From positions 69,155 through 133,154 of the forward strand of contig CAKOHW010000003.1 in NCBI GenBank assembly GCA_934086185.1: a stretch of 64,000 nucleotides of DNA. Reading direction: 5' to 3'. How positions within the stretch are numbered: the stretch's first letter is position 1; each line of letters opens with the position of its first letter. Below the pieces are notes generated by a model. That model had not been told where the DNA came from and searched no databases. It saw only the letters and a list, made by a program, of their open reading frames with translations. This DNA comes from an uncultured Bacilli bacterium (GTDB lineage: Bacteria; Bacillota_I; Bacilli_A; RF39; UBA660). Shown piece by piece: positions 1-58,129 of this stretch. The position numbers were made by a program, and so were the translations under genes.

Positions 1-64
1 AAGTCAAAAAAATAAAGTAGTAATTGTTAATGCACCTACTAAAAATGATGAAATAAAAGAATAC

Positions 65-1426
65 TTGGGTTATACTTGGTCTACTAGAAAAGGTAGTGAG
101 GGTATTAAATATTTAGGTGTTAAAAATGATGCGGGAGTATTAGATAAAAATCATGGAATAAATACAATACAAACACCTTTATTTAATCCTTCTGATTTAG
201 AAGACCCAGAAAAAATTAATTCTATAATCAGAAATAATTTTGCAGGACAAGAATTAGATTTTGATTATGACAATGTAAAATATCATGATTTAATTGATTT
301 ACTTGATTTTAAGACAACCGCATTTACAAAAAATATTAAAACAGCAAATATTAGAAGAAATATTATTCTAAAAGAAGGCTATAAGTTGTACAACTTATCC
401 AATAGTAAAAATTTTGATTTAAGTATTGGAAAAAGAGTTATCACATCTGATATATCAAAGAATGGTAAGATTCCTATATATAGTGCAAATGTAAATGATA
501 TATTTGGTTATAGCGAATCAACTTTAGCAAGTTTATCAGATTTTAGTACGCCATCAGTTTTATGGGGAATAGATGGTGATTGGAATGTTGGTTATGTCAA
601 AGAAAATATTAAATTTTTTCCAACTGATCATTGCGGAGTATTAAGAATAAAATCAGAGGAATTATTACCTAAATATGTAATGTACGCATTAGAATATGAA
701 GGAATACAATCTAGATTTTCACGTAGTAATAGAGCGTCAACTCAACGTGTAAAAGATTTAGTTATTCAAGCACCTAGCGTCGCAGAACAGAAAAAAATTA
801 TTTCTGAATTAGATGAATATGATAATAAAATAAAAATATTAAACAAGGATATAAATGAATTAACTAACGAGATAGATGTTAAATTTGATGAAATGTTTGT
901 CGGAAAAGGAATTGAAACATCAAAGATTAACTCATTATATAGTGAATTATATGCAGGTGGTGATACACCAATTCAAACTTCTAAGAAACGAGATGATGAA
1001 TTTAAATATCCTATTTATTCAAATGGCACAAAAAATGCAGGTCTATTGTATTACTCTAAAGAATATAAAACGTCTAAAGAAGCAGTAACAATTTCAGCAA
1101 GAGGAACAATAGGTTATACACAAATTAGAAAGCCCAATTTTACTGCAGTTGTTCGACTAATAGTAATGGTTCCAAATGATAAAGTGAATATTTATTACTT
1201 AAAATCTGCAATTGATCATATTGAATTTAATAAAACAGGTAATGGCGCTGGTCAATTAACTGTTCCAGATTTTGCAAATATGGATATTATTTTACCTAAT
1301 AAAAAAGAACAGGAAATATTTGCTAAATTTGTTTTAGACAATTATAAAAAAATAGATACATTAGAACAAGAATTGATTACGGCTGGTACAAATAAAGAAG
1401 AACTATTAAATAAATACTTTAAATAA
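65..1426 (+). CDS. hsdS: Type I restriction-modification specificity subunit HsdS with two target-recognition domains
   Basis: 453 aa. Two TRD-like halves are each followed by the conserved HsdS spacer motifs (QAPSVAEQKKIISELDEYDNKI and ILPNKKEQEIFAKFVLDNYKKIDTLEQELI). The upstream ORF ends at nt 15. Confidence 0.75.
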   Translation: MGYTWSTRKGSEGIKYLGVKNDAGVLDKNHGINTIQTPLFNPSDLEDPEKINSIIRNNFAGQELDFDYDNVKYHDLIDLLDFKTTAFTKNIKTANIRRNIILKEGYKLYNLSNSKNFDLSIGKRVITSDISKNGKIPIYSANVNDIFGYSESTLASLSDFSTPSVLWGIDGDWNVGYVKENIKFFPTDHCGVLRIKSEELLPKYVMYALEYEGIQSRFSRSNRASTQRVKDLVIQAPSVAEQKKIISELDEYDNKIKILNKDINELTNEIDVKFDEMFVGKGIETSKINSLYSELYAGGDTPIQTSKKRDDEFKYPIYSNGTKNAGLLYYSKEYKTSKEAVTISARGTIGYTQIRKPNFTAVVRLIVMVPNDKVNIYYLKSAIDHIEFNKTGNGAGQLTVPDFANMDIILPNKKEQEIFAKFVLDNYKKIDTLEQELITAGTNKEELLNKYFK

Positions 1427-1517
1427 TAAAAAATATTTGATTTTTGTATTTTTGTTAATTAAATATTAATCAAAATATAATTTATTATTTAGAATTATTA
1501 TAGGGAGTGAAGTATTA

Positions 1518-3314
1518 ATGAAGTTAAAGTTTATAAAAATTAATAATTATAAATCTTTTGCTAATGATTGTAATCAATTGTTTGTTTCTGAATTAAATAC
1601 TATAGTTGGTAAAAATGAATCTGGAAAATCAAATTTAATAGAAGCTATTGGCAATATAAATAAAATTGGAGCAACATCTATTGACTATTTTAAAAATATA
1701 AATAAGAATTCGAAAGAAGATATAAGTATTGAACTAACTTTTGAATTGGATGCAATTGATAAAAAGAGATATAATTATCATGAAAATGTAATTGTAAGTA
1801 TAAATGGCTATAAGAATTGTGAATTTGATGAAAAATTTGGAGATGTTATTTCAAGTATAAATAATATTTCAAATATCAGAGATGAAATACTTAGATTTAT
1901 AGATGAGAATAGTATTCCTATTAGCAACCCTGAGAATAAATTAGTTTATGACCCAATTATCGAAGGTGTAAAGCAAATTAACAAAAAAATAATCTTTAAA
2001 CCAGATGGCTATGACAATTTTATTAACAGGTTAATTGGTACAAAAAATGAAGTATTAATGGAATTATGTAATTTGTTTGAAAAGCTATTTAAAATACTAG
2101 ATGAAGTTTATCCGAATTTTCCAGAATTCATATTAATTTCTAGTAATGAATTAAAAAAAACATATACGAGTTCTGAATTATATGATGAATTAGATAGTTT
2201 TAGTTCAATACTATATCAATTCTTAGAAGTATGTAAAATAAATTCTACTGATATAATTGAAACATCTAATTTAGATGATGCTGTTGATATTTTAAATAGA
2301 ACTAATGAATATAATAATTTGATTAGAACTAACTTTGTAGAAAAATTTAATAATTTTTATAAACAAGAAATTATTGATATGGTTATTAATTTTAATTCAC
2401 ATAAAATGACTGTTGCAATTAAGACGAAAGGAAGATTTCTTCCAATAGAAGAGCGCAGTAATGGATTAAAATGGTACATTAATATTTTTATTCAATTGAT
2501 GTTTAGAGATTTGATTGGAAAGAGCAGAAATAAAATAATTTTATTAGATGAACCTGGTGTTTTTCTACATTCAATAGCTCAAGAAGAATTATTAAGTTTA
2601 TTATATGATTTATCAACTAGAGATAATCAAGTTATTTATACTACTCATTCACCAGCAATGATTAATTTCGATAAAATACAAAATATTAGAGCTATTGAAA
2701 AAGATGATAATGGCAATAGTTGTATATATAATAAAATATCCGAATTTCCAATCAGTTCTAAATCTAAGTATGAAACAATAACTCCGATTATAAATGCAAT
2801 GGGTTATAAAATGAAGTATAATATTGGAATTAATTCAAAAAAATTTAATTTAATTGTTGAAGGAATTACTGATTATTTATATTTACAATCATATATAAAT
2901 ATTAAAAAAATAAAAGATTATAACATAATAGCGAGTACAGGAGCTGATAATATTCCTGCAATATCATCCATTTTATATGGATGGGGATGCCAATTTATAA
3001 TAGTATTAGACAATGATAATAAGGGTAGAAGTGTATATGATTCAATAAATTCGAGTGATATGCCTTATAAAGATAAGATTATATTTGTTAACGGGAAAAA
3101 ATATACAAAAAATTTGGATGAAGAAATTGAAGATATTTTTTCAGAAGAAGATAAAATAAAATTTAATTTAAATAGTCTTGATTATAAAGATAAAAAGTAT
3201 TTTTATGCATATGCTTGCTATGAAAGAATAAAAACAAAAGTAGATAAATTTGATAATCACACTATTTCGAATTTTGATAGATTATTTAAAAATATAGGTG
3301 ATTTAAAGAAATAA
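1518..3314 (+). CDS. OLD-family ATP-dependent endonuclease (ABC-type ATPase N-domain plus C-terminal Toprim domain)
   Basis: 598 aa. Walker A GKNESGKSN, Walker B ILLDEPGVFLH and H-loop TTHSP are present. The C-terminal Toprim signature is LIVEGITDYLYLQ ... ASTGADNIP ... FIIVLDNDNKG. RBS GGGAGTG upstream. No UvrD-like partner gene follows. Confidence 0.75.
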   Translation: MKLKFIKINNYKSFANDCNQLFVSELNTIVGKNESGKSNLIEAIGNINKIGATSIDYFKNINKNSKEDISIELTFELDAIDKKRYNYHENVIVSINGYKNCEFDEKFGDVISSINNISNIRDEILRFIDENSIPISNPENKLVYDPIIEGVKQINKKIIFKPDGYDNFINRLIGTKNEVLMELCNLFEKLFKILDEVYPNFPEFILISSNELKKTYTSSELYDELDSFSSILYQFLEVCKINSTDIIETSNLDDAVDILNRTNEYNNLIRTNFVEKFNNFYKQEIIDMVINFNSHKMTVAIKTKGRFLPIEERSNGLKWYINIFIQLMFRDLIGKSRNKIILLDEPGVFLHSIAQEELLSLLYDLSTRDNQVIYTTHSPAMINFDKIQNIRAIEKDDNGNSCIYNKISEFPISSKSKYETITPIINAMGYKMKYNIGINSKKFNLIVEGITDYLYLQSYINIKKIKDYNIIASTGADNIPAISSILYGWGCQFIIVLDNDNKGRSVYDSINSSDMPYKDKIIFVNGKKYTKNLDEEIEDIFSEEDKIKFNLNSLDYKDKKYFYAYACYERIKTKVDKFDNHTISNFDRLFKNIGDLKK

Positions 3315-3346
3315 CTTCTTGCCAATTTGGCAAGAAGTATTTTTTA
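3315..3346 (+). terminator. Rho-independent terminator after the OLD nuclease gene
   Basis: Perfect inverted repeat ACTTCTTGCCAA / TTGGCAAGAAGT followed by ATTTTTT. Confidence 0.75.
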
Positions 3347-4640
3347 TCTTATGGGAGAAAGACCTTTATCATTACTTACATCACCAGGTGGCGAAGGCGC
3401 TGAAGTAATTTACGCACTTAGAAATAATGATAAATTGGCTAGTAAAATACTTAATGGATTATCTGAAAGTGGACAAACTATAAGAAAATATTATCAAAGA
3501 CGTTTGCCAAGTGATACTTCTAAAGATTATTATTATATAATAAGAAATACTCCAAATGCTGAAACAGTTATTGTTGAATATGGATTTTTAGATAATAAAA
3601 ATGATGCTGATAGAATAAAACAAAATTATAAAAAATATGCAGATGCTGTTGTGGATGCTGTTTTAGATTATAAAGGTATATCAGTTAATAATGATGGATA
3701 TTATATTGTTAAAAAAGGAGATTCATTATGGAGTATTGCTAACAATAATGGAATAACTGTAAGTGATTTGAAAAAACTAAATAATTTGACTAGTAATAAT
3801 TTAAGTATAGGACAAAAGTTAAAATTAAAAAATAATAATGATAACAATGGAAGCAACGATAATTTATATTCTAGTACATATGTGGTTAAGAATGGAGATA
3901 CGTTATATAGTATTGCTAAAAAATATAATGTAAGTGTTGATGATATAAAAAGTGTTAATAATTTAACAAATAATAATCTGACAATTGGACAAGTTATTAA
4001 AATACCTGGTATAAATATAGAAGAACCTAATACATATACTGTAAAAAAGGGAGATTCGTTATGGAGTATAGCAAATAAGTATGGTACAAGTGTAGAAGAA
4101 CTTAAAAAAGTTAATAATCTTACAAGTAATGTATTATCTAGTGGACAAGTATTAAAATTACCTGGTACTAGTAAAGAAAATACAGTTAATACTTATACTG
4201 TTAAACGTGGAGATACATTATATTCTATTGCTAGTAAATATAATATTAGTGTTGATAAATTAAAAGAAATTAACAATTTAACTAGTAATAATTTAAGTAT
4301 TGGACAAACATTAAATCTTATTGATAAAACTGATAATATAACTAGTGAAGATTATGATTACTATACAGTAAAGAATGGAGATACATTATATAGTATTGCT
4401 AATAAATTTGATACTACAGTTAGTAAGATAAAAGAATTAAATAATTTACCAAATAATATGTTGAGTGTTGGGCAAATGATAAAAATACCTGGTAATTTAT
4501 CTAGTACATATGTAGTTAAGAGTGGAGATACACTATGGAGTATTGCTAAAGATAATAATATTAGTGTTGATAAGTTAAAAGAAATTAACAATTTAAATAG
4601 TAATAATTTAACTATTGGTCAACAATTATTAATAAATTAA
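3327..4640 (+). pseudogene. 5'-truncated N-acetylmuramoyl-L-alanine amidase (Amidase_3 C-terminal half only) fused to six LysM repeats
   Basis: The ORF opens inside the terminator hairpin. Its first ~115 aa align to the distal half of Amidase_3 (GAEVIY, LASKILNGL, YYIIRNTPNAETVIVEYGFLDN, ADAVVDAVLDY). The proximal SIHxNA metal-binding part and any signal peptide are absent. Six LysM units follow, each of the form YxVKxGD(T/S)L(W/Y)SIAxKY...L...N.L.IGQ.L. Confidence 0.
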
Positions 4641-4709: not shown

Positions 4710-6047
4710 TTGGTGAAGATAGAATTAAAAGCTAGGAAATTTGCTATAAAAGCTCATAAGGGTCAAGTTAGAAAAAGTGATAAAGATAAACCTATGATAA
4801 TTCATCCTATAAATGTTGCAAATATTTTAAAAGAATATGATTTTGATCAAAATGTGATATCTGCTGGATATTTGCACGATGTTGTAGAAGATACTAAATA
4901 TGAAATAGAAAACATAAAAGAAATGTTTGGTGAAGATATTGCATCTTTAGTATGGGGTGCTAGTGAAGAAGATAAAAGTTTATCTTGGGAAGAAAGAAAA
5001 GAACATACAATAGAAAAAGCAAAAACATTAGATTTAAGACATAAAGCAGTAATTTGTGCGGATAAAATAAGTAATTTAGAAGATTTAAGAATATTATATG
5101 AACTAAAGGGAGAAAGTGTTTTTTCTTCATTTAAAAGAGGTTTTGAATCTCAAAAATGGTATTATACTGAAGTTTATAATAGTTTAATTATGAATGAAGA
5201 TAAAAATCATCCTATGTTTATAAGATTAAAAGAAATAATAGATTATATATTTTATAATAAAAATTCTAATGAATATGTTAAAACTATTATTTTTAAAGAA
5301 AATATAGATGAATATAATCTTTTAAAAAATATACATTATAGAAAAGAAGAAGTTTTTAAATTAAAAAATGTTTTATCTAAGAAAAAACCATATGTAATAG
5401 AATTTACTGGAACTCCTAGAACTGGTAAAACTAGTTTAATAAATAATTTAAAAGATTTTTTTAAGAAGAAGGGTTTTAGTGTTTGTATTATTGAGGAATT
5501 TACTACTTCATTAAAATATAAGACGCAAATATATCCAATTCTTAAAAATGAATCTAAAAATGTAGTTAATACTGAAATACCAAAGTATGTATTAAAAGAT
5601 TTGGATGATGCAATAAATAGTAAATATGATATTATTATTGTAGATAGATCTTTATTTGATAGACTTATATGGGTAGATAGATTATTTTTAAAAAAGGGTA
5701 TGAGTGATGAAGAATATAATGAATATAAAAGTACATATATACCATTAATTAAGGAAAAGATTAATATTATTGTATCATTATATACTGATAGTTTGACTTG
5801 TTTAAAAAGGGATTATCATGCTAATTTATCACTTGAAAATAGAACATTTTTAAATGTAGATAATGTTAATGAATATAATAAATCGTTATTAAATATGGAA
5901 AAGTTATCTATAAAAGAGAATATTAATTTTAAAATGTTTGATACTACTAATAAGAATCAAAGAGAAATATCATTTGAAGTTATAGATAGTATATTAAGTG
6001 ATATGAGAAAATACTATTTATCTTTGGTTATTGATGAATTTAATTAA
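4710..6047 (+). CDS. Fusion protein: RelA/SpoT-type HD domain (small alarmone hydrolase-like) plus a C-terminal P-loop deoxynucleoside/nucleotide kinase-like domain
   Basis: GTG start with RBS GAGGTG. N-terminal KARKFAIKAHKGQVRK ... IIHPINVANIL ... AGYLHDVVEDT matches the ppGpp-hydrolase HD motif set (H, HD, D). The C-terminal half carries Walker A GTPRTGKTS and a dNK-like DRSLFDRLIW motif. Confidence 0.6.
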   Translation: MVKIELKARKFAIKAHKGQVRKSDKDKPMIIHPINVANILKEYDFDQNVISAGYLHDVVEDTKYEIENIKEMFGEDIASLVWGASEEDKSLSWEERKEHTIEKAKTLDLRHKAVICADKISNLEDLRILYELKGESVFSSFKRGFESQKWYYTEVYNSLIMNEDKNHPMFIRLKEIIDYIFYNKNSNEYVKTIIFKENIDEYNLLKNIHYRKEEVFKLKNVLSKKKPYVIEFTGTPRTGKTSLINNLKDFFKKKGFSVCIIEEFTTSLKYKTQIYPILKNESKNVVNTEIPKYVLKDLDDAINSKYDIIIVDRSLFDRLIWVDRLFLKKGMSDEEYNEYKSTYIPLIKEKINIIVSLYTDSLTCLKRDYHANLSLENRTFLNVDNVNEYNKSLLNMEKLSIKENINFKMFDTTNKNQREISFEVIDSILSDMRKYYLSLVIDEFN

Positions 6048-6134: not shown

Positions 6135-6590
6135 ATGCCACAATACGATACTAGTTCAAGTATTACTAGTAGTTTAGGACAAACAGCAAAATCTTTTTCA
6201 GTATCTGAAGTTTGGATAATTGTAAGTGTTTTATTAGCAGTAATTGGAGGTATATTATTATTTACTACATATTTTAATAAAGATATGGAAAATAAATATA
6301 CTGGATTTAAAAAAACTATATATGATTTTTTACATTTTAAGATTACTATTATAGAACCTATATTTAAAGTAGCTTATTTAGTTGTAGCAATTGCTATTAC
6401 GTTAAGTTCATTTTCATTTATTCCAATTAATTTCTTTAAATTTATTGGAGTGTTAGTATTTGGCAATATTATGGCAAGATTAGGATTTGAAATGTTACTT
6501 CTAATCTTAAAATTATTTACTGATGTAAGTGAAATAAATAAGAAAATTGGTAAAGAGCCTAAAAAAACTAAAACTGAAAAAGAAAAATAA
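6135..6590 (+). CDS. Hypothetical small membrane protein
   Basis: 151 aa with hydrophobic helices and a lysine-rich C-terminus. RBS AAGGATG. Confidence 0.4.
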   Translation: MPQYDTSSSITSSLGQTAKSFSVSEVWIIVSVLLAVIGGILLFTTYFNKDMENKYTGFKKTIYDFLHFKITIIEPIFKVAYLVVAIAITLSSFSFIPINFFKFIGVLVFGNIMARLGFEMLLLILKLFTDVSEINKKIGKEPKKTKTEKEK

Positions 6591-9891: not shown

Positions 9892-11601
9892 GTGAAAAAG
9901 ATAGTTCCTATAATTATAATAGTTATATGTTTATTTATATCTGTTACAGGTATAGTTACATTTTTTATTGTTAATAATGGGTCTTTTTTAACTAGTTTTA
10001 AAATTACTAGAGTTAATAATATAGGATTAGATTATTATGTATATTTTCAAAATGTTAAAGCTGCTACTAGTTATGATGTTATTGTTTATGATTCTGAGAA
10101 CTTAATTGTACATAGAGAAAATATAAAAAATAATAGTTTGACAATTAATTTTGATAACTTAAAATATAATGAAACATATAAGATTGTTGTTGTTGCTTAT
10201 GATAAGAATGGTAATAAAAAGAGCGTCAAAGAACCTTATACTTTTATGTGGGAAGATTTATCTTTAGCAAGTACTAATACTGTTTTAATGGATAATGAGA
10301 ATGATTATATAGTAGAGTTTATAGGTAATTATAAGAAAAAAAAGTATTATTTAAATATTAAAGAAGATAATGATGTAATTAAGAGTGTTAGAATAAATGG
10401 AGAGTCTTATGTAATTAAGAATGATTTATTTAAAGATAGAAAAACTAAGTATCTTTTAGAAATTGTTGAAGATAATACGGTTATTTCTAGTATGTATGTT
10501 TATAATTTGATGAGTCCTATTACAGATATTAGTATTATTAATCCTGGTAATGGTGATATGAAAGATTATGATGATGTTCCTTTAAGTTTTGAAGGTGGAG
10601 ATAATGCTACCAATTATATTTTTGAGTTATATCAAAATAATAAATTAATTAGAAGAAAAGAAATAAAAAATAAAAATATAATATTATCTAATAATTTATT
10701 TAATAAGGCTTCTACTTATGTTGCTAAAATAACTGCAAGTTATGCAGATTATATAGATTATTCTAAAGTGGCAAGTGTAGAGTTTACTATTAATGCTAAA
10801 GAAAGTTTAAAACCGGTTTATACTAATTATAATTATAGTTTAATTAAGAGTGGTACTGAAATAGAGTTATTAAATGATGACAAGGATGCAATTATTTATT
10901 ATACTACTGATGGTAGTGAACCTAATCAAGATAGTTTAGTTTATAAAGATAAGATAGTAATTAATAATAATATGACTATTAAGGCTATTGCTAAAAAAGA
11001 TAAGATGAATGATTCTATTATAAGTAGTTTTGATTTTAAGGTAGGTAGTAAGAGTAATTATAAAGTATATTTAAGTGCTTCTAATCAAAATGCTAATTTA
11101 GGTGTTAGTGAAGTAGGTTATACTAACGAAAAGAAAGAAATGAATGATGTTGCAAATTATATACAAAAACGTTTAGAAAGTTATGGTGTTAAAGTATATA
11201 GAAATGAGTATGGTGATTTAAATAGATGGGTTGCTGATAGTACTTATTTGGGTGTTGATTTGCATATTGCAATCCATTCAAATGCAAGTGAAGAACATTT
11301 GTCTTATGGAATAGAAACTTGGGTAAATGAACCTGATAGTAAAACTTATTCTTTGGCCAGTAAAATACAAAATAATTTAATGAGTATTTATTATAAAAAT
11401 GAAGATAGTTTAGCAAATAGGGGAGTAAAATATGCTTATGGTTCTTTAGGAGAAGTTAATCCTAATTATGTTCCGTTTGGAATATTGGTAGAAGTTGCTC
11501 ATCATGATTATAAAGATGATGCTAAATGGATTGTTGATAACAAAGAAAAAATTGGTAATAATATAGCAGATTCTATATTGGAATATTTTCAAATTAAATA
11601 A
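9892..11601 (+). CDS. Cell-wall amidase-like protein: TM anchor, FN3/chitobiase-C-like domains, C-terminal Amidase_3-like domain
   Basis: GTG start after a GGAG RBS. Central YYTTDGSEPNQDS motif is typical of the chitobiase/hexosaminidase C-domain. The C-terminus has VDLHIAIHSNAS ... GIETWV ... ILVEVAHHD, an Amidase_3-like metal-site pattern. Confidence 0.5.
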   Translation: MKKIVPIIIIVICLFISVTGIVTFFIVNNGSFLTSFKITRVNNIGLDYYVYFQNVKAATSYDVIVYDSENLIVHRENIKNNSLTINFDNLKYNETYKIVVVAYDKNGNKKSVKEPYTFMWEDLSLASTNTVLMDNENDYIVEFIGNYKKKKYYLNIKEDNDVIKSVRINGESYVIKNDLFKDRKTKYLLEIVEDNTVISSMYVYNLMSPITDISIINPGNGDMKDYDDVPLSFEGGDNATNYIFELYQNNKLIRRKEIKNKNIILSNNLFNKASTYVAKITASYADYIDYSKVASVEFTINAKESLKPVYTNYNYSLIKSGTEIELLNDDKDAIIYYTTDGSEPNQDSLVYKDKIVINNNMTIKAIAKKDKMNDSIISSFDFKVGSKSNYKVYLSASNQNANLGVSEVGYTNEKKEMNDVANYIQKRLESYGVKVYRNEYGDLNRWVADSTYLGVDLHIAIHSNASEEHLSYGIETWVNEPDSKTYSLASKIQNNLMSIYYKNEDSLANRGVKYAYGSLGEVNPNYVPFGILVEVAHHDYKDDAKWIVDNKEKIGNNIADSILEYFQIK

Positions 11602-44080: not shown

Positions 44081-45406
44081 TTGATTAATGATTATAGAAT
44101 AAAAATTAAAAATAATGAAGAAGTACTATATTTGTATATGAATTTTGATACTGAGTTTTCGTTGAGTGAATTAAGAGATAATATTGATAATTTTAAAGTT
44201 AGAATTAGTAAATTTATCAAGAAGAACAAGATAAATTTTAAAGGAACTACTGTTGCTATTGTTGTAGGCGGTTTGATGATTGGGACTATATCATTAAATA
44301 ATATAAAATATGATGATAAATCTGTAGTTCCAAATTATATTGTTTCTATAAATAATAAAGTATATTTTGAAGATATTAATAAAGATAATGAAATAGATAA
44401 TGATATTTTAAATAATGAAGTTTCAGAATTAAATACAACTATTGAGAATCAGAATCAATATAATGAAGTAAAAAAAGACAATCAAGAGAATGTAAATACT
44501 GTTAAAAATACTGTAAAGAGTAGTGTGAATAATAAGTCTAATACTGTAAATAAAGAAAGTAGTAATGTTAATCAAAATAATAATGTAGTAAATGAAGAAA
44601 ATAAAAGTTCTGGAACTATAATAAATTTATATAGAAAAAATGGCTCTGTTGTTAGTATGGATTTAGATGAATATTTAATTGGTGTAGTAGGTGCAGAAAT
44701 GCCTGCTTCATTTAATATAGAAGCGTTAAAGGCACAAGCTATAGTTGCTAGAACATATACTTTAAAAACTATTAATAGTGGTAAAAAATTAAGTGATGAT
44801 AATAGTACACAAAATTATAAATCGAATGAGGAATTAAAAAATACTTGGGGTAGTAGTTATAATACTTATTATAATAAAGTTAGAAGTGCTGTAATAGATA
44901 CTAAGGGAATTGTTATAAAATATAATGGAAGTTTAATAGATGCTTTATATCATTCTACAAGTAATGGTTATACAGAAGATGCTAGTAATGTATGGAAAAA
45001 TAGTGTTCCTTACTTGAAAAGTGTTAGTAGTGAATATGATACTACTAATAAGAATTTTATATATAATAAATTTATTAGTTATCAAGATTTATCTAATAAA
45101 TTAGGTATACCTGTTAGCTACAGTAGTAATATAGAAATTAGTGAAAAAACTAATAGTGGTAGAGTTAAGTATTTAAATATTGATGGAAATATTTTTAATG
45201 GAGTTAATGTAAGAACAATACTTGAGTTACGTTCTACAGATTTTGTATTTGAAAAACAAGAAACTGGAATTAATATAATAACTAAAGGTTATGGACATGG
45301 AGTAGGTATGAGTCAATATGGAGCAAATGGAATGGCTAATAATGGATATAGTTATAAAGATATAATATTACATTATTATACTGGGGTATATTTAGATGCT
45401 ATATAA
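44081..45406 (+). CDS. SpoIID/LytB-domain protein (lytic transglycosylase/amidase enhancer family)
   Basis: TTG start. N-terminal TM, low-complexity N/K-rich linker, then SpoIID core IGVVGAEMPASFNIEALKAQAIVARTYTL ... YHSTSNGYTE. Confidence 0.7.
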   Translation: MINDYRIKIKNNEEVLYLYMNFDTEFSLSELRDNIDNFKVRISKFIKKNKINFKGTTVAIVVGGLMIGTISLNNIKYDDKSVVPNYIVSINNKVYFEDINKDNEIDNDILNNEVSELNTTIENQNQYNEVKKDNQENVNTVKNTVKSSVNNKSNTVNKESSNVNQNNNVVNEENKSSGTIINLYRKNGSVVSMDLDEYLIGVVGAEMPASFNIEALKAQAIVARTYTLKTINSGKKLSDDNSTQNYKSNEELKNTWGSSYNTYYNKVRSAVIDTKGIVIKYNGSLIDALYHSTSNGYTEDASNVWKNSVPYLKSVSSEYDTTNKNFIYNKFISYQDLSNKLGIPVSYSSNIEISEKTNSGRVKYLNIDGNIFNGVNVRTILELRSTDFVFEKQETGINIITKGYGHGVGMSQYGANGMANNGYSYKDIILHYYTGVYLDAI

Positions 45407-46111
45407 TAGTTCATTTAATGTAGTTCCTATTATTTCCGATATTTCATTAACATATTTATCAATATGACTTGTTGACATTAATAAAGTAGTTTTATTATAG
45501 GTATATTCTAATGATGTTGGAATACCAATAACTAATACATTGGTATTCATATTTTTTTTACTAATTAACGTATTATTTCCATGTATTCCACTTCCTGGAG
45601 TAATACCTATATTATTTAATTCTAAGGTCTTATTTAAATTATTAATATTGTTTGTTAAAAAAGAATCTATTAATATTATTAAATTAGGTTTTATTAATTT
45701 ATTAATACTTTTAATAATCATTGTTGTATCTATTCCTGTAGTTCCTAATACACCTGGTTCTATTGTAGAAATTTTTATATTATTAGATGTTATTATATTA
45801 TTTAAATATAAATTTGGAGTAATATATTTTATAGATTTTGGACCTATAGAATCAGATGTATTAGAAATATTACCTAAACCTACTATTAAGATGTTTGATT
45901 TATTATTTATGTTATATAAATTAAAGAAATGAAGTAATTGTGTTTTTAGTATTTTTTTTATATTATTTTTTTCGATTAAACTATTAAAGTGTAATGTTAT
46001 ATATAATTTATTTTTATTTTCGTATTCAGATATAAGTATGTTATTTTTTTTATATTCTTTAGTTTTTTTAATATTTATATTATCTATTGCTAAGTCAGTT
46101 CTGTTATTCAT
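45392..46111 (-). CDS. YyaC-like spore protease family protein (GPR/HybD fold)
   Basis: ILIVGLGNISNTSDSIGPKSIKYIT resembles the GPR/YyaC N-terminal motif. RBS AGGTGA. Confidence 0.4.
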   Translation of the reverse strand: MNNRTDLAIDNINIKKTKEYKKNNILISEYENKNKLYITLHFNSLIEKNNIKKILKTQLLHFFNLYNINNKSNILIVGLGNISNTSDSIGPKSIKYITPNLYLNNIITSNNIKISTIEPGVLGTTGIDTTMIIKSINKLIKPNLIILIDSFLTNNINNLNKTLELNNIGITPGSGIHGNNTLISKKNMNTNVLVIGIPTSLEYTYNKTTLLMSTSHIDKYVNEISEIIGTTLNELLYSI

Positions 46112-56336: not shown

Positions 56337-56386
56337 GACTTTTTATTTTTTATTTAGTACAATTATTATAATAGAAGGTGAATAAT

Positions 56387-58129
56387 ATGTTTGGAGAATT
56401 ATTAGATATTTATGATAATTATGTAATAATAGAAAATAAAACTCATGTAATTGATTCTAATTATTTAAATATTCATGTAGTATTTAATGATACTAATAAA
56501 AAAGTAGTTGGAGAAATAGTTTCTATAGATAAGAATACTATTAAAATCTTATTAATTGGTGAGATTATTGATGATAAATTTGTTAATGGTATTGTTAGAA
56601 AACCTAATTTAAGTAATGGATGTAGAGTTATATATAAAAGTGAAGTTGAATTATTACTTGGCAAACAAGATTTAAGTAGTAATGAAAGTTTTTATATTGG
56701 AAAATCTTTAATATATGATGGATTTAATGTAACTGGTAATTTTAATAATTTCTTTTCTAATCATTTTGCAATAATGGGTAATACTGGAAGTGGAAAGAGT
56801 TGTTTTGTTGCTAGAATACTTCAAAATATATTTATGAATAGTAATAGTTTACCTAAAAGTGCACATATTGCTTTATTTGATGTATATGGTGAATATAATA
56901 AGGCATTTGTTGGTATGAATAATATTAATGGGATGGGATTTAAAAATTATTCTTCAAAAGTAGATATGAGTGAAGGTGAAATAATTAATATTCCTGCATA
57001 CTTTTTAAGTGTTGATGATTTGGCTTTACTTTTAAATGCTAGTAGTGCTAATCAATTGCCAATAATAGAGAAGACTTTGAAATTAGTTTATATATTTAAA
57101 AATACTGATGAAACTATTAGTAAATATAAAGATGATATTATTGCTGGTTGTCTTTTAGATATTTTAACTAGTGGAAGAAGTAGTACTCAAATTAGAGATC
57201 AAATAATTGCTGTATTAACTCGTTATAATACTCCAACATTAAATTTAGAAAGTGAAATAGCACAACCTGGTTATACTAGAACGATTAAACAATGTTTAAA
57301 TATTGATAATCAGGGAAAAATGAATTCTGTACAATATGTAGTTGATTTGTTAGAAAAATATAAAAAATTAGACTTAGGTGAAATAAATGGTATTCCTAAC
57401 TTTGTATATACATTAGAAGATATTTATTATGCTATGGAATTTGCATTAATTAGTGAAGGTGTACTTAAGAGTGATAAATTATATGATGAATATAATCAAT
57501 TAAAAGTTCGTTTACAACAAATAATAAATAGTGATTATAAACAATATTTTAAAGTTGGAGAATTTATTTCTAAGGGTGAATATGTAAGAAATTTATTTGG
57601 AAATGCTCAAATTATTAATTTTAATTTAAATAATATAGATGAAAGATTTACTAAGAAACTTGCTAAAATATATTCTAAAATATTTTTTGATTTTGCAACA
57701 TTTATTGAAGATAGAGGTAGTTATCCTATTCATATTATTTTGGAAGAAGCACATAGATATGTACAAAATGATACTGATACTAATATACTAGGTTATAATA
57801 TATTTGATAGAATTACTAAAGAAGGTAGAAAATATGGTGTATTACTAGGTTTAATTAGTCAAAGACCTAGTGAATTATCTATAACTGCATTAAGTCAATG
57901 TTCTAATTTTATAATACTAAGAATGTTTTATCCAGATGATTTGAATATTATAAAATCTATAACTAGTAATTTAAATGAAAGTACTTATGATAAAGTTAAA
58001 TCATTTTTACCGGGTAGTGCACTTGTGTTTGGTACTTCATTTATGACACCTTTATTAATAAGATGTGATTTACCTAATCCTATGCCTGAAAGTACAAGTG
58101 TAAATATTAGTAATATTTGGTATAATTAA
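56387..58129 (+). CDS. HerA/FtsK-like P-loop ATPase (DUF87 family), orphan
   Basis: N-terminal barrel-like domain. Walker A AIMGNTGSGKS, Walker B IHIILEEAHRYV (hhhhDEAH type), arginine-finger region LISQRPSELS. RBS GAAGG. No NurA, Sir2 or other known partner adjacent. Confidence 0.6.
   Translation: MFGELLDIYDNYVIIENKTHVIDSNYLNIHVVFNDTNKKVVGEIVSIDKNTIKILLIGEIIDDKFVNGIVRKPNLSNGCRVIYKSEVELLLGKQDLSSNESFYIGKSLIYDGFNVTGNFNNFFSNHFAIMGNTGSGKSCFVARILQNIFMNSNSLPKSAHIALFDVYGEYNKAFVGMNNINGMGFKNYSSKVDMSEGEIINIPAYFLSVDDLALLLNASSANQLPIIEKTLKLVYIFKNTDETISKYKDDIIAGCLLDILTSGRSSTQIRDQIIAVLTRYNTPTLNLESEIAQPGYTRTIKQCLNIDNQGKMNSVQYVVDLLEKYKKLDLGEINGIPNFVYTLEDIYYAMEFALISEGVLKSDKLYDEYNQLKVRLQQIINSDYKQYFKVGEFISKGEYVRNLFGNAQIINFNLNNIDERFTKKLAKIYSKIFFDFATFIEDRGSYPIHIILEEAHRYVQNDTDTNILGYNIFDRITKEGRKYGVLLGLISQRPSELSITALSQCSNFIILRMFYPDDLNIIKSITSNLNESTYDKVKSFLPGSALVFGTSFMTPLLIRCDLPNPMPESTSVNISNIWYN

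Follow-up and report, generated by a model that had tools for sequence, protein, structure and literature searches.

Why should the reading frame of a cell wall amidase open inside the transcription terminator of a defense gene? The question is raised by an open reading frame (ORF) at positions 3327 to 4640 (+) of a 64,000-nucleotide (nt) stretch from the genome of an uncultured RF39 Bacilli bacterium (assembly GCA_934086185.1, contig CAKOHW010000003.1, positions 69,155 to 133,154; that whole stretch is hereafter called the window), which an earlier note, made from the sequence alone, had taken for a probable pseudogene left behind when a defense cassette replaced the 5' part of an autolysin gene. 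Following the locus beyond the window suggests a different answer: positions 3393 to 4640 are very likely the attR-side half of an amidase gene that is cut by a 9.79-kb integrative element, encoding a large serine recombinase (LSR) and exchangeable defense cargo, at a docking site shared by a family of such elements.

A truncated amidase gene beside a defense cassette

The ORF begins with a TTG codon and specifies 437 amino acids (aa), in which Pfam detects only profile positions 84 to 172 of the 174 that make up Amidase_3 (protein residues 22 to 112), followed by six LysM stretches, just as the earlier note had described. The zinc-binding half of the domain is absent from the ORF as it stands, and the distal half contains a VIVEYGF motif whose glutamate we take, from what is known of the family, to be the catalytic one. 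The nearest full-length relatives, 505 to 510 aa long and ~70% identical, possess ~90 additional N-terminal residues, including DPGHGGED and SNH; hence, the truncation is real, and orthologs do not naturally start at the equivalent residue. In these intact orthologs, the catalytic domain (MNYLRALTGVVIDPGHGG...) comes first and no signal peptide precedes it, so the secretion signal that was thought to have been lost is no part of the loss. The best NCBIfam match of the amidase is CwlD, at a score below the cutoff (87 bits versus 221). The gene occupies a conserved chromosomal setting (metK/NUDIX or His_Phos upstream and LCP/lactamase_B/cysS downstream); given this synteny and the absence of phage genes nearby, we rejected the idea that it is a prophage endolysin.

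That the ORF opens within a terminator hairpin is also correct. The TTG codon at 3327 falls in the 3' arm of ACTTCTTGCCAA-T-TTGGCAAGAAGT, a structure with perfect 12-bp arms, a 1-nt center, and a T-run, in a scan that recovered 2 terminator-like sites (both strands) versus 0.2 expected from shuffles. The hairpin is, however, only where the ORF starts and not where the amidase was cut: homology to intact genes begins 47 nt farther downstream, at GGTGGCGAAGG (3387 onward), and the first ~20 codons of the ORF (MARSIFYLMGERPLSLLTSP) are mobile-element DNA. The N-terminal half of the amidase has no tblastn match within the window and is located outside it.

The missing half lies at the other end of an integrative element

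Contig L092, retrieved by means of the OLD-family protein encoded in the window, extends the locus 8.5 kb leftward and shows 0 mismatches to the window over the 13,314 nt that the two share. It carries, in order, metK, a NUDIX gene, a 102-aa ORF corresponding to the 5' half of Amidase_3, a 317-aa ORF, the LSR gene (-), ORFs of 37 and 143 aa and an HTH_36 gene (-), a type IIG restriction-modification (RM) gene, the OLD gene, and the 3' half of the amidase. The fragment in the window was indeed created by the insertion of defense-gene DNA, as both halves flank the element, but the cassette did not replace the 5' part of the gene: this part is intact as the 102-aa ORF (L092 1810-2118), with its own promoter and ribosome binding site (RBS), 9.79 kb upstream of the break at the element's other end. 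Joining the halves in silico at the core shared by the two element ends yields an uninterrupted, in-frame ORF of 507 aa, whose product aligns end to end with the intact orthologs and, over the whole domain, also with amidases in the PDB. Independent samples (L092, L190, and L196) show the same split layout, which makes it unlikely that the assembly has falsely joined the element to the two halves of the gene. Samples with this element include ENA ERZ27287144, ERZ27287428, and ERZ28614804 and the Logan runs ERR7738208 and ERR7738571.

The break falls between ...HINAGG and GEGAEV..., and many relatives are truncated at this same residue. Every truncated relative parts from the intact sequence directly 5' of GGTGG(C/A)GAAGG, where four unrelated element-side sequences occur, and copies represented by the 5' half only (L012, L133, and L122) run as far as ...HINAGG and then pass into unrelated codons that lead to a stop. 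Such copies came from two scans. A motif scan of genome contigs based on a generic Amidase_3 alignment returned at least 600 stretches, the relevant ones among the matches listed being L012 (5' half) and L013 (intact), and a scan of metagenome contigs for the RBS and start pattern returned 91 stretches, 3 of which contain the gene itself (L168, intact; L133 and L122, 5' halves).

Attachment sites and recombinase

An 8-bp core, CAGGTGGC, is identical at attL (L092 2078-2085) and attR (L092 11868-11875, the equivalent of window 3385-3392), which lie 9,790 bp apart; attL consists of AATGCAGGTGGC joined to TCAGATATAAG, and attR consists of CATCACCAGGTGGC joined to GAAGGCGCT. The reconstructed attP has core-centered dyad arms, CCTT(T/C)AT(C/A)ATTACTTA(C/T)ATC, with 16/20 positions matched, and the junctions predicted to result from excision are ...ACTTACATCACCAGGTGGCTCAGATATAAGTAATT... 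in the circle (attP) and ...CACATAAATGCAGGTGGCGAAGGCGCTGAAG... at the rejoined site (attB).

The LSR is 549 aa long (L092 3114-4763, -) and has the Pfam domains Resolvase, Recombinase, and Zn_ribbon_recom; its NCBIfam matches are CcrB, XisF, and CcrC, the best of which, CcrB, scores far under its cutoff (88 bits versus 900). Elsewhere, an LSR of 533 to 561 aa is situated near the junction in two junction types, within 18 nt in one and ~7 kb away in the other. LSRs from three junction types share 55 to 59% identity with one another, and a fourth, from L189, is 62% identical to the LSR described here. A prophage origin of the element was considered and is unsupported, the LSR being at most 35% identical to any of 50,697 phage records; the one LSR match in IMG/VR (L189) is another defense island, not a phage. 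The ORFs of 317, 143, and 37 aa have no match in Pfam, NCBIfam, or PADLOC.

We propose that the element inserted by site-specific recombination within the codons of the loop ...SNHINAGG/(G)EGAEV..., right after the third zinc ligand (the slash marks the break). From attL to attR, it comprises a conserved recombination module (317-aa ORF, LSR, 37-aa and 143-aa ORFs, and HTH_36), an exchangeable cargo slot, the hairpin, and a conserved right end of ~45 nt, whose attP-derived arm forms an inverted repeat with the element's left end at 16/20 positions. In the integrated state, the amidase would be inactive, with the promoter, RBS, and zinc ligands left in its 5' half and the catalytic Glu and wall-binding LysM units in its 3' half, which is behind the terminator and lacks an RBS; precise excision by the LSR would rejoin the halves in frame. 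The interrupted codon is very likely a dedicated attB for a family of LSR elements with varied defense cargo, both in this species and in its relatives. The features of the element and amidase gene that fall in the window are collected in Table 1.

At the boundary of backbone and cargo, in the intergenic region between HTH_36 and the RM gene and upstream of the former (L092 5765-6261), we also observed about six close-set motifs of the type (A/G)ATACT(A/G)AA (…AATACTAAAATCAATACTGTTTTTGATACTAAAAATGATACTGAAAGTGATACTAAA…), an array that could be operator or iteron-like.

Table 1. Features of the interrupted amidase locus, in window coordinates
Feature	Position	Strand	Basis
Last ~475 codons of 1215-aa type IIG restriction endonuclease-methyltransferase-specificity fusion (element cargo)	1-1426	+	L092 6262-9909 = window -2221..1426
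598-aa OLD-family ATPase-TOPRIM nuclease (element cargo)	1518-3314	+	Pfam AAA_15, AAA_21, and weak OLD-like_TOPRIM; PADLOC Old, E = 6.4e-29
Bidirectional intrinsic-terminator hairpin at end of cargo, inside element, 47 nt from crossover core	3314-3338	.	Terminator scan
Chimeric start of the mechanical ORF, codons from element DNA (TTG 3327 or ATG 3351)	3327-3392	+	Sequence
Conserved right end of element, including attP-derived arm CCTTTATCATTACTTACATC (3363-3382)	3339-3384	+	Kept across elements of different cargo (L092, L001, L190, L196)
attR copy of 8-bp core CAGGTGGC, containing the inferred crossover	3385-3392	+	attL/attR comparison
Host-derived 3' segment: distal Amidase_3 half (to ~3690), six LysM units (3702-4637), stop	3393-4640	+	Pfam, LysM coordinates, alignment to intact alleles and orthologs
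LysM units 1 to 6	3702-3833, 3879-4010, 4035-4166, 4194-4325, 4362-4493, 4509-4637	+	Motif

Related elements carry different defense genes

The cargo of the element consists of the type IIG RM gene and the OLD gene. The former starts 2.2 kb to the left of the window, matches N6_Mtase, Eco57I, and Methylase_S in Pfam, and is called as REase_MTase_IIG by PADLOC (1288.6 bits); the ORF at 65-1426, with its Methylase_S match, is the C-terminal specificity part of this fusion protein rather than the separate hsdS gene for which it had been mistaken. In L190, from the same species, an element with the same 4-kb backbone (97% identity) instead holds a MwoI-like restriction endonuclease, a C5 methyltransferase, and a 798-aa protein, and homology to the element in the window resumes just past the position of the hairpin. 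L001 shares the hairpin and right end only and has a type I HsdR and a retron-type reverse transcriptase as cargo, and the cargo in L189 comprises SIR2-HerA, two methylases, and an HNH protein. The hairpin at 3314-3338 is thus present beside other cargo in L001, and it is present in L196 as well; a different hairpin takes the equivalent position in L190. L189 additionally encodes a second LSR (455 aa; L189 13604-14971, -) directly downstream of the amidase 3' half, which suggests that another element has docked on the far side of the amidase.

The element has also moved between hosts. In L196, the element of the window recurs, 97.8% identical across 8,584 nt and inserted at the same codon, in a host in which the amidase 3' half is only ~63% identical to that in the window and the downstream flank is unrelated. 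This disparity indicates recent movement between divergent hosts into the same codon. With an intact LSR, well-formed att sites, and so similar a copy in another genome, the insertion does not have the character of a fossil scar, and we infer that the LSR is currently active.

Empty sites, occupancy, and selection on the two halves

The earlier note had advised looking for relatives without the cassette in which the syntenic gene is whole, and one exists within the same species: L188 has a 508-aa gene in the same synteny, with flanks that are 96.6 to 97.6% identical to those of L092 and homology that breaks at the core. Among the matches listed, the cluster defined by at least 90% identity in the 3' half contains 3 intact sequences (5 contigs) and 12 truncated ones (~55 contigs), such that the site is occupied in ~90% of the sampled contigs of the species. 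The occupants are diverse, with at least 8 postjunction tails in the 5'-half cluster and at least 5 heads preceding the 3' halves. A member of the cluster bears the label "Bacilli bacterium" in one source.

Neither half contains a stop or a frameshift in any copy examined. Within the species, the ratio of nonsynonymous to synonymous substitution rates (dN/dS) is 0.12 to 0.24 for the 3' half (14 synonymous versus 7 to 8 nonsynonymous changes) and 0.06 to 0.26 for the 5' half, values that show apparent purifying selection on both halves. Together with the in-frame ORF that is restored by joining, the lack of lesions and these ratios speak against calling the fragment a pseudogene.

Two further differences concern the gene's ends and surroundings. 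In one relative (L004 and L005), the last LysM is cut off (…KKGDTIFMGNNE*; L004 11100-11188) and an unrelated 582-aa gene follows, so the 3' end of the amidase can be remodeled too. L188 4345-5916 corresponds to an extra 1.6 kb between NUDIX and the amidase promoter, containing a 75-aa ORF and a 408-aa DUF898 gene, that is absent from the window's strain (L092 1738/1732).

Several observations weigh against the reading of a gene split by an LSR element. The empty site (L188, around 6256-6290), GCAGGGGGTGGC (AGGGEG, 508 aa), differs from the site implied by attL and attR, GCAGGTGGC (AGGEG, 507 aa), by one Gly codon, and a conservative LSR exchange on the 508-aa allele cannot yield both observed junctions with this 3-nt mismatch. 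Shifting the crossover dinucleotide was tried as an explanation, and the two junctions could not be reconciled by any position; the alternatives are a target allele without that Gly codon and a loss of 3 nt after integration. Also, the signal of selection may be largely older than the integration. No recombination directionality factor (RDF) is recognized among the ORFs of the element by Pfam, NCBIfam, or PADLOC. Finally, neither an attP circle nor a rejoined allele was found: when the collection was queried for exact copies of the rejoined protein, at 507 aa and at 508 aa, neither was present (such look-ups are uninformative).

Is the amidase rejoined?

Of the alternatives, plain insertional inactivation at a tolerated hotspot survives best: the amidase would be dispensable, and elements would occasionally be lost or replaced with no programmed rejoining. 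All of the structural evidence for a gene split by an LSR element fits this explanation equally, empty and occupied alleles coexist within one species, and the 3-nt difference between the rejoined and empty sequences suggests that exact restoration may not matter. Bacterial amidases are, moreover, often redundant, and a second Amidase_3 protein (569 aa; 9892-11601) is encoded 5 kb downstream of the fragment. What this explanation accommodates poorly is the condition of the halves, which are free of stops and frameshifts and have dN/dS values of 0.06 to 0.26 even when two split alleles with the same right end (L092 and L001) are compared, whereas ~90% occupancy should have let a gene that is truly dispensable decay. 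We regard the arguments for and against it as evenly balanced.

A second possibility extends the split-gene reading: the insertion could be a programmed intervening element of the skin/SP-beta/gin type, such that a CwlC-like lysin is restored by excision that occurs only in the mother cell, and the element, with its defense cargo, stays in the genome of the spore. The host, whose GC content is 23.7%, encodes SpoIID (window 44081-45406, +; TIGR02870, 315.6 bits versus a cutoff of 234.75) and, convergent with it, the GPR spore protease (window 45392-46111, -; TIGR01441, 141.9 bits versus a cutoff of 120), and since both exceed their curated cutoffs, we infer that it is an endospore former. Moreover, a motif of the form AC-N16-CATAnnnTA precedes the amidase ATG by 42 nt in four lineages in which the surrounding sequence differs (L092/L133/L188, L168/L122, L002, and L193/L194); when 60-nt windows were drawn at random from this genome, only 0.3% contained it. 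It matches the sigma-K consensus of Bacillus subtilis (AC / CATA---TA) and partly matches the sigma-E -10 element.

The upstream neighbor of the amidase varies by lineage, and the motif at -42 is kept. In L193 and L194 (the P0030 lineage), the motif is immediately preceded, ~60 to 150 nt before the start codon, by a terminator and by what looks to the eye like a tRNA 3' end (CCA).

The sporulation genes, the lack of a signal peptide, and the conserved sigma-K-like motif make excision in the sporulating mother cell plausible, as for skin and gin. The mother-cell lysin CwlC likewise has no signal peptide, and programmed rejoining further draws on the conservation of both halves despite ~90% occupancy, which fits a cost-free insertion; a precedent exists in gin, a non-phage LSR element with an RM system in the gerE gene of Bacillus cereus (PMC5595907). 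Several findings count against it: the AC-N16-CATAnnnTA motif is absent upstream of the distant homologs L195, L013, and L012, and the promoter call uses a B. subtilis consensus; scans of the element and LSR operon for sigma-E and sigma-K motifs yielded no convincing site, including in front of the LSR operon; no RDF was recognized and no excision product was found; the rejoined protein would be one Gly short; and sporulation of the host is deduced from two genes only. On balance, an element of the skin/gin type is possible but not the outcome that we would expect, and we advance developmental rejoining of the amidase as a tentative proposal of about the same standing; should the halves ever be rejoined, sporulation, in the mother cell, is the time that we would favor. 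A more specific form of the idea, in which the amidase is a mother-cell lysin that LSR defense carriers use as cost-free parking, staying in the chromosome of vegetative cells and of the spore germline, with anti-phage immunity as the benefit, and leaving only in the doomed mother cell, seems to us somewhat unlikely.

The two remaining explanations fare much worse. According to one, expression of the 3' fragment alone, beginning at ATG 3351, gives a LysM-only protein that binds the wall and has acquired a new function; 429 to 437 codons are open, gene callers annotate the ORF (starting at ATG 3351, for 429 aa), and the LysM repeats are conserved. Yet neither TTG 3327 nor ATG 3351 is preceded by a Shine-Dalgarno sequence, whereas the real gene start has AGGTGAT-N5-ATG; the strong terminator lies 13 nt upstream of ATG 3351, with no promoter between them; the fragment has no signal peptide; and other junction types, such as that in L007 (*LNN*HS*LNSPGGEGAEV), present stop codons before the 3' half and no start codon nearby. 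Because the Shine-Dalgarno sequence is missing, a terminator lies upstream, and other junctions contain stops, the 3' fragment is unlikely to be expressed alone and is probably silent by itself; and since L007-type junctions lack a nearby start, an expressed fusion is not a conserved feature. A LysM-only function is accordingly very improbable. The other explanation, that a dead remnant is all that was left once the cassette took the place of the gene's 5' part, is suggested by the window alone, in which tblastn finds no N-terminal half and the fragment has no RBS or promoter, but it is refuted by the intact 5' half on the same molecule, the empty site in L188, and the recent transfer of the element; the intact LSR, the well-formed att sites, and the purifying selection on both halves also count against it.

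Comparison with known systems

A gene cut by an LSR element that carries defense cargo has partial counterparts in several well-studied systems, as follows.

(i) The skin (sigK) and SP-beta (spsM) elements of B. subtilis and skinCd of Clostridioides difficile are prophages or prophage remnants of 48 to 134 kb. As at the present locus, an LSR-borne element interrupts a gene whose halves are kept intact, and in those systems the halves of the mother-cell gene are rejoined by an LSR and an RDF under sporulation-controlled expression (PMC4191935, PMC5499854, PMC5025042). The element described here differs in having no phage genes and an LSR that is at most 35% identical to phage records, and scans for an RDF and for sporulation control of the LSR did not find them.

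(ii) The gin element in gerE of B. cereus ATCC 10987 is 28.6 kb long, encodes three recombinases and an RM system, and interrupts a 225-bp transcription factor gene; its sporulation-specific excision and the participating factors, GirC and GirX, were established experimentally (PMC5595907). Both it and the present element are non-phage, combine a serine recombinase with RM genes, split a coding gene of a spore former, and share a short core at which joining restores the ORF. The present element, in contrast, measures 9.8 kb and encodes a single LSR; it interrupts an amidase-LysM gene and is one of a family whose cargo can be swapped, and its excision is predicted from sequence.

(iii) SCCmec and its Ccr recombinases resemble this system in that compact, non-phage islands moved by LSRs use a single conserved attB, have modular, exchangeable cargo, and come in numerous variants that occupy one position. 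The insertion point of SCC is the 3' end of rlmH (orfX), where the gene is not destroyed, and its cargo consists of resistance genes; here, attB lies in the middle of a gene and the cargo is anti-phage.

(iv) Known defense-island hotspots are generally situated at tRNA genes or between genes and are served by tyrosine integrases or unknown routes. The hotspots of the Escherichia coli pan-genome are similar in that one chromosomal position accepts many alternative defense cargos (PMC10121019). The present locus differs in being a single, codon-level site inside a coding gene that is used by one LSR family.

(v) CwlC has an N-terminal Amidase_3 domain, no signal peptide, and C-terminal wall-binding repeats. 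The amidase studied here shares this domain layout and lack of a signal peptide, and a sigma-K-type motif lies upstream of its gene; it has six LysM units instead of the CwlC repeat domain, and the likeness is one of architecture. In B. subtilis, CwlC and CwlH are late amidases of mother-cell lysis (PMC517825).

No intervening element that targets an amidase gene or cwlC is reported in the literature that we searched. LSR integrative elements, gene-intervening elements, and defense-island hotspots are known kinds of system; the particulars that are new are the target gene, the compact design of a backbone plus cargo, and the heavy and diverse occupancy of one intragenic site.

Other features of the locus and the window

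Gene content also varies in a second slot, which separates the amidase from the LCP gene. In the window, it holds a gene (4710-6047, +) for a 445-aa protein with HD_4 (RelA/SpoT-type hydrolase) and AAA_28 P-loop domains; in L002, it holds TIR_2, NUDIX, and GNAT genes; in L004, the gene for an unknown 582-aa protein; and in L006 and L007, only an ORF of ~155 aa. This slot may be another hotspot for defense genes. Farther along the window, between prsA and dnaE, a 583-aa HerA-like helicase (56378-58129, +) matches models of "anti-phage-associated HerA" below the cutoff (E = 3e-46).

Implications

The locus illustrates a trap for annotation, in that a "truncated pseudogene" beside a defense cassette can be half of a split gene whose other half is out of view. 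Several LSRs that are 55 to 62% identical and share one attB may also interest builders of recombinase tools.

For these uncultured, very AT-rich (23.7% GC), spore-forming gut Bacilli, the finding describes a compact, modular vehicle of anti-phage genes in which an LSR backbone of ~4 kb is coupled to a cargo slot of ~6 kb. The cargos found so far are type IIG RM with OLD, type II RM, type I RM with a retron-type reverse transcriptase, and SIR2-HerA. The occupancy of a single site by at least 8 junction types, and the sharing of an element with a genome whose flank is unrelated, offer a natural system in which to follow the competition and turnover of defense islands. If excision is tied to sporulation, a cell wall hydrolase would join sigK, spsM, spoVFB, spoVR, and gerE among the genes that are rebuilt during development. 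And should the amidase prove to be a parking site vacated in the mother cell, it would be an undescribed target gene for sporulation-specific rearrangement, and its occupants would be the first population of interchangeable defense islands found to compete for such a site.

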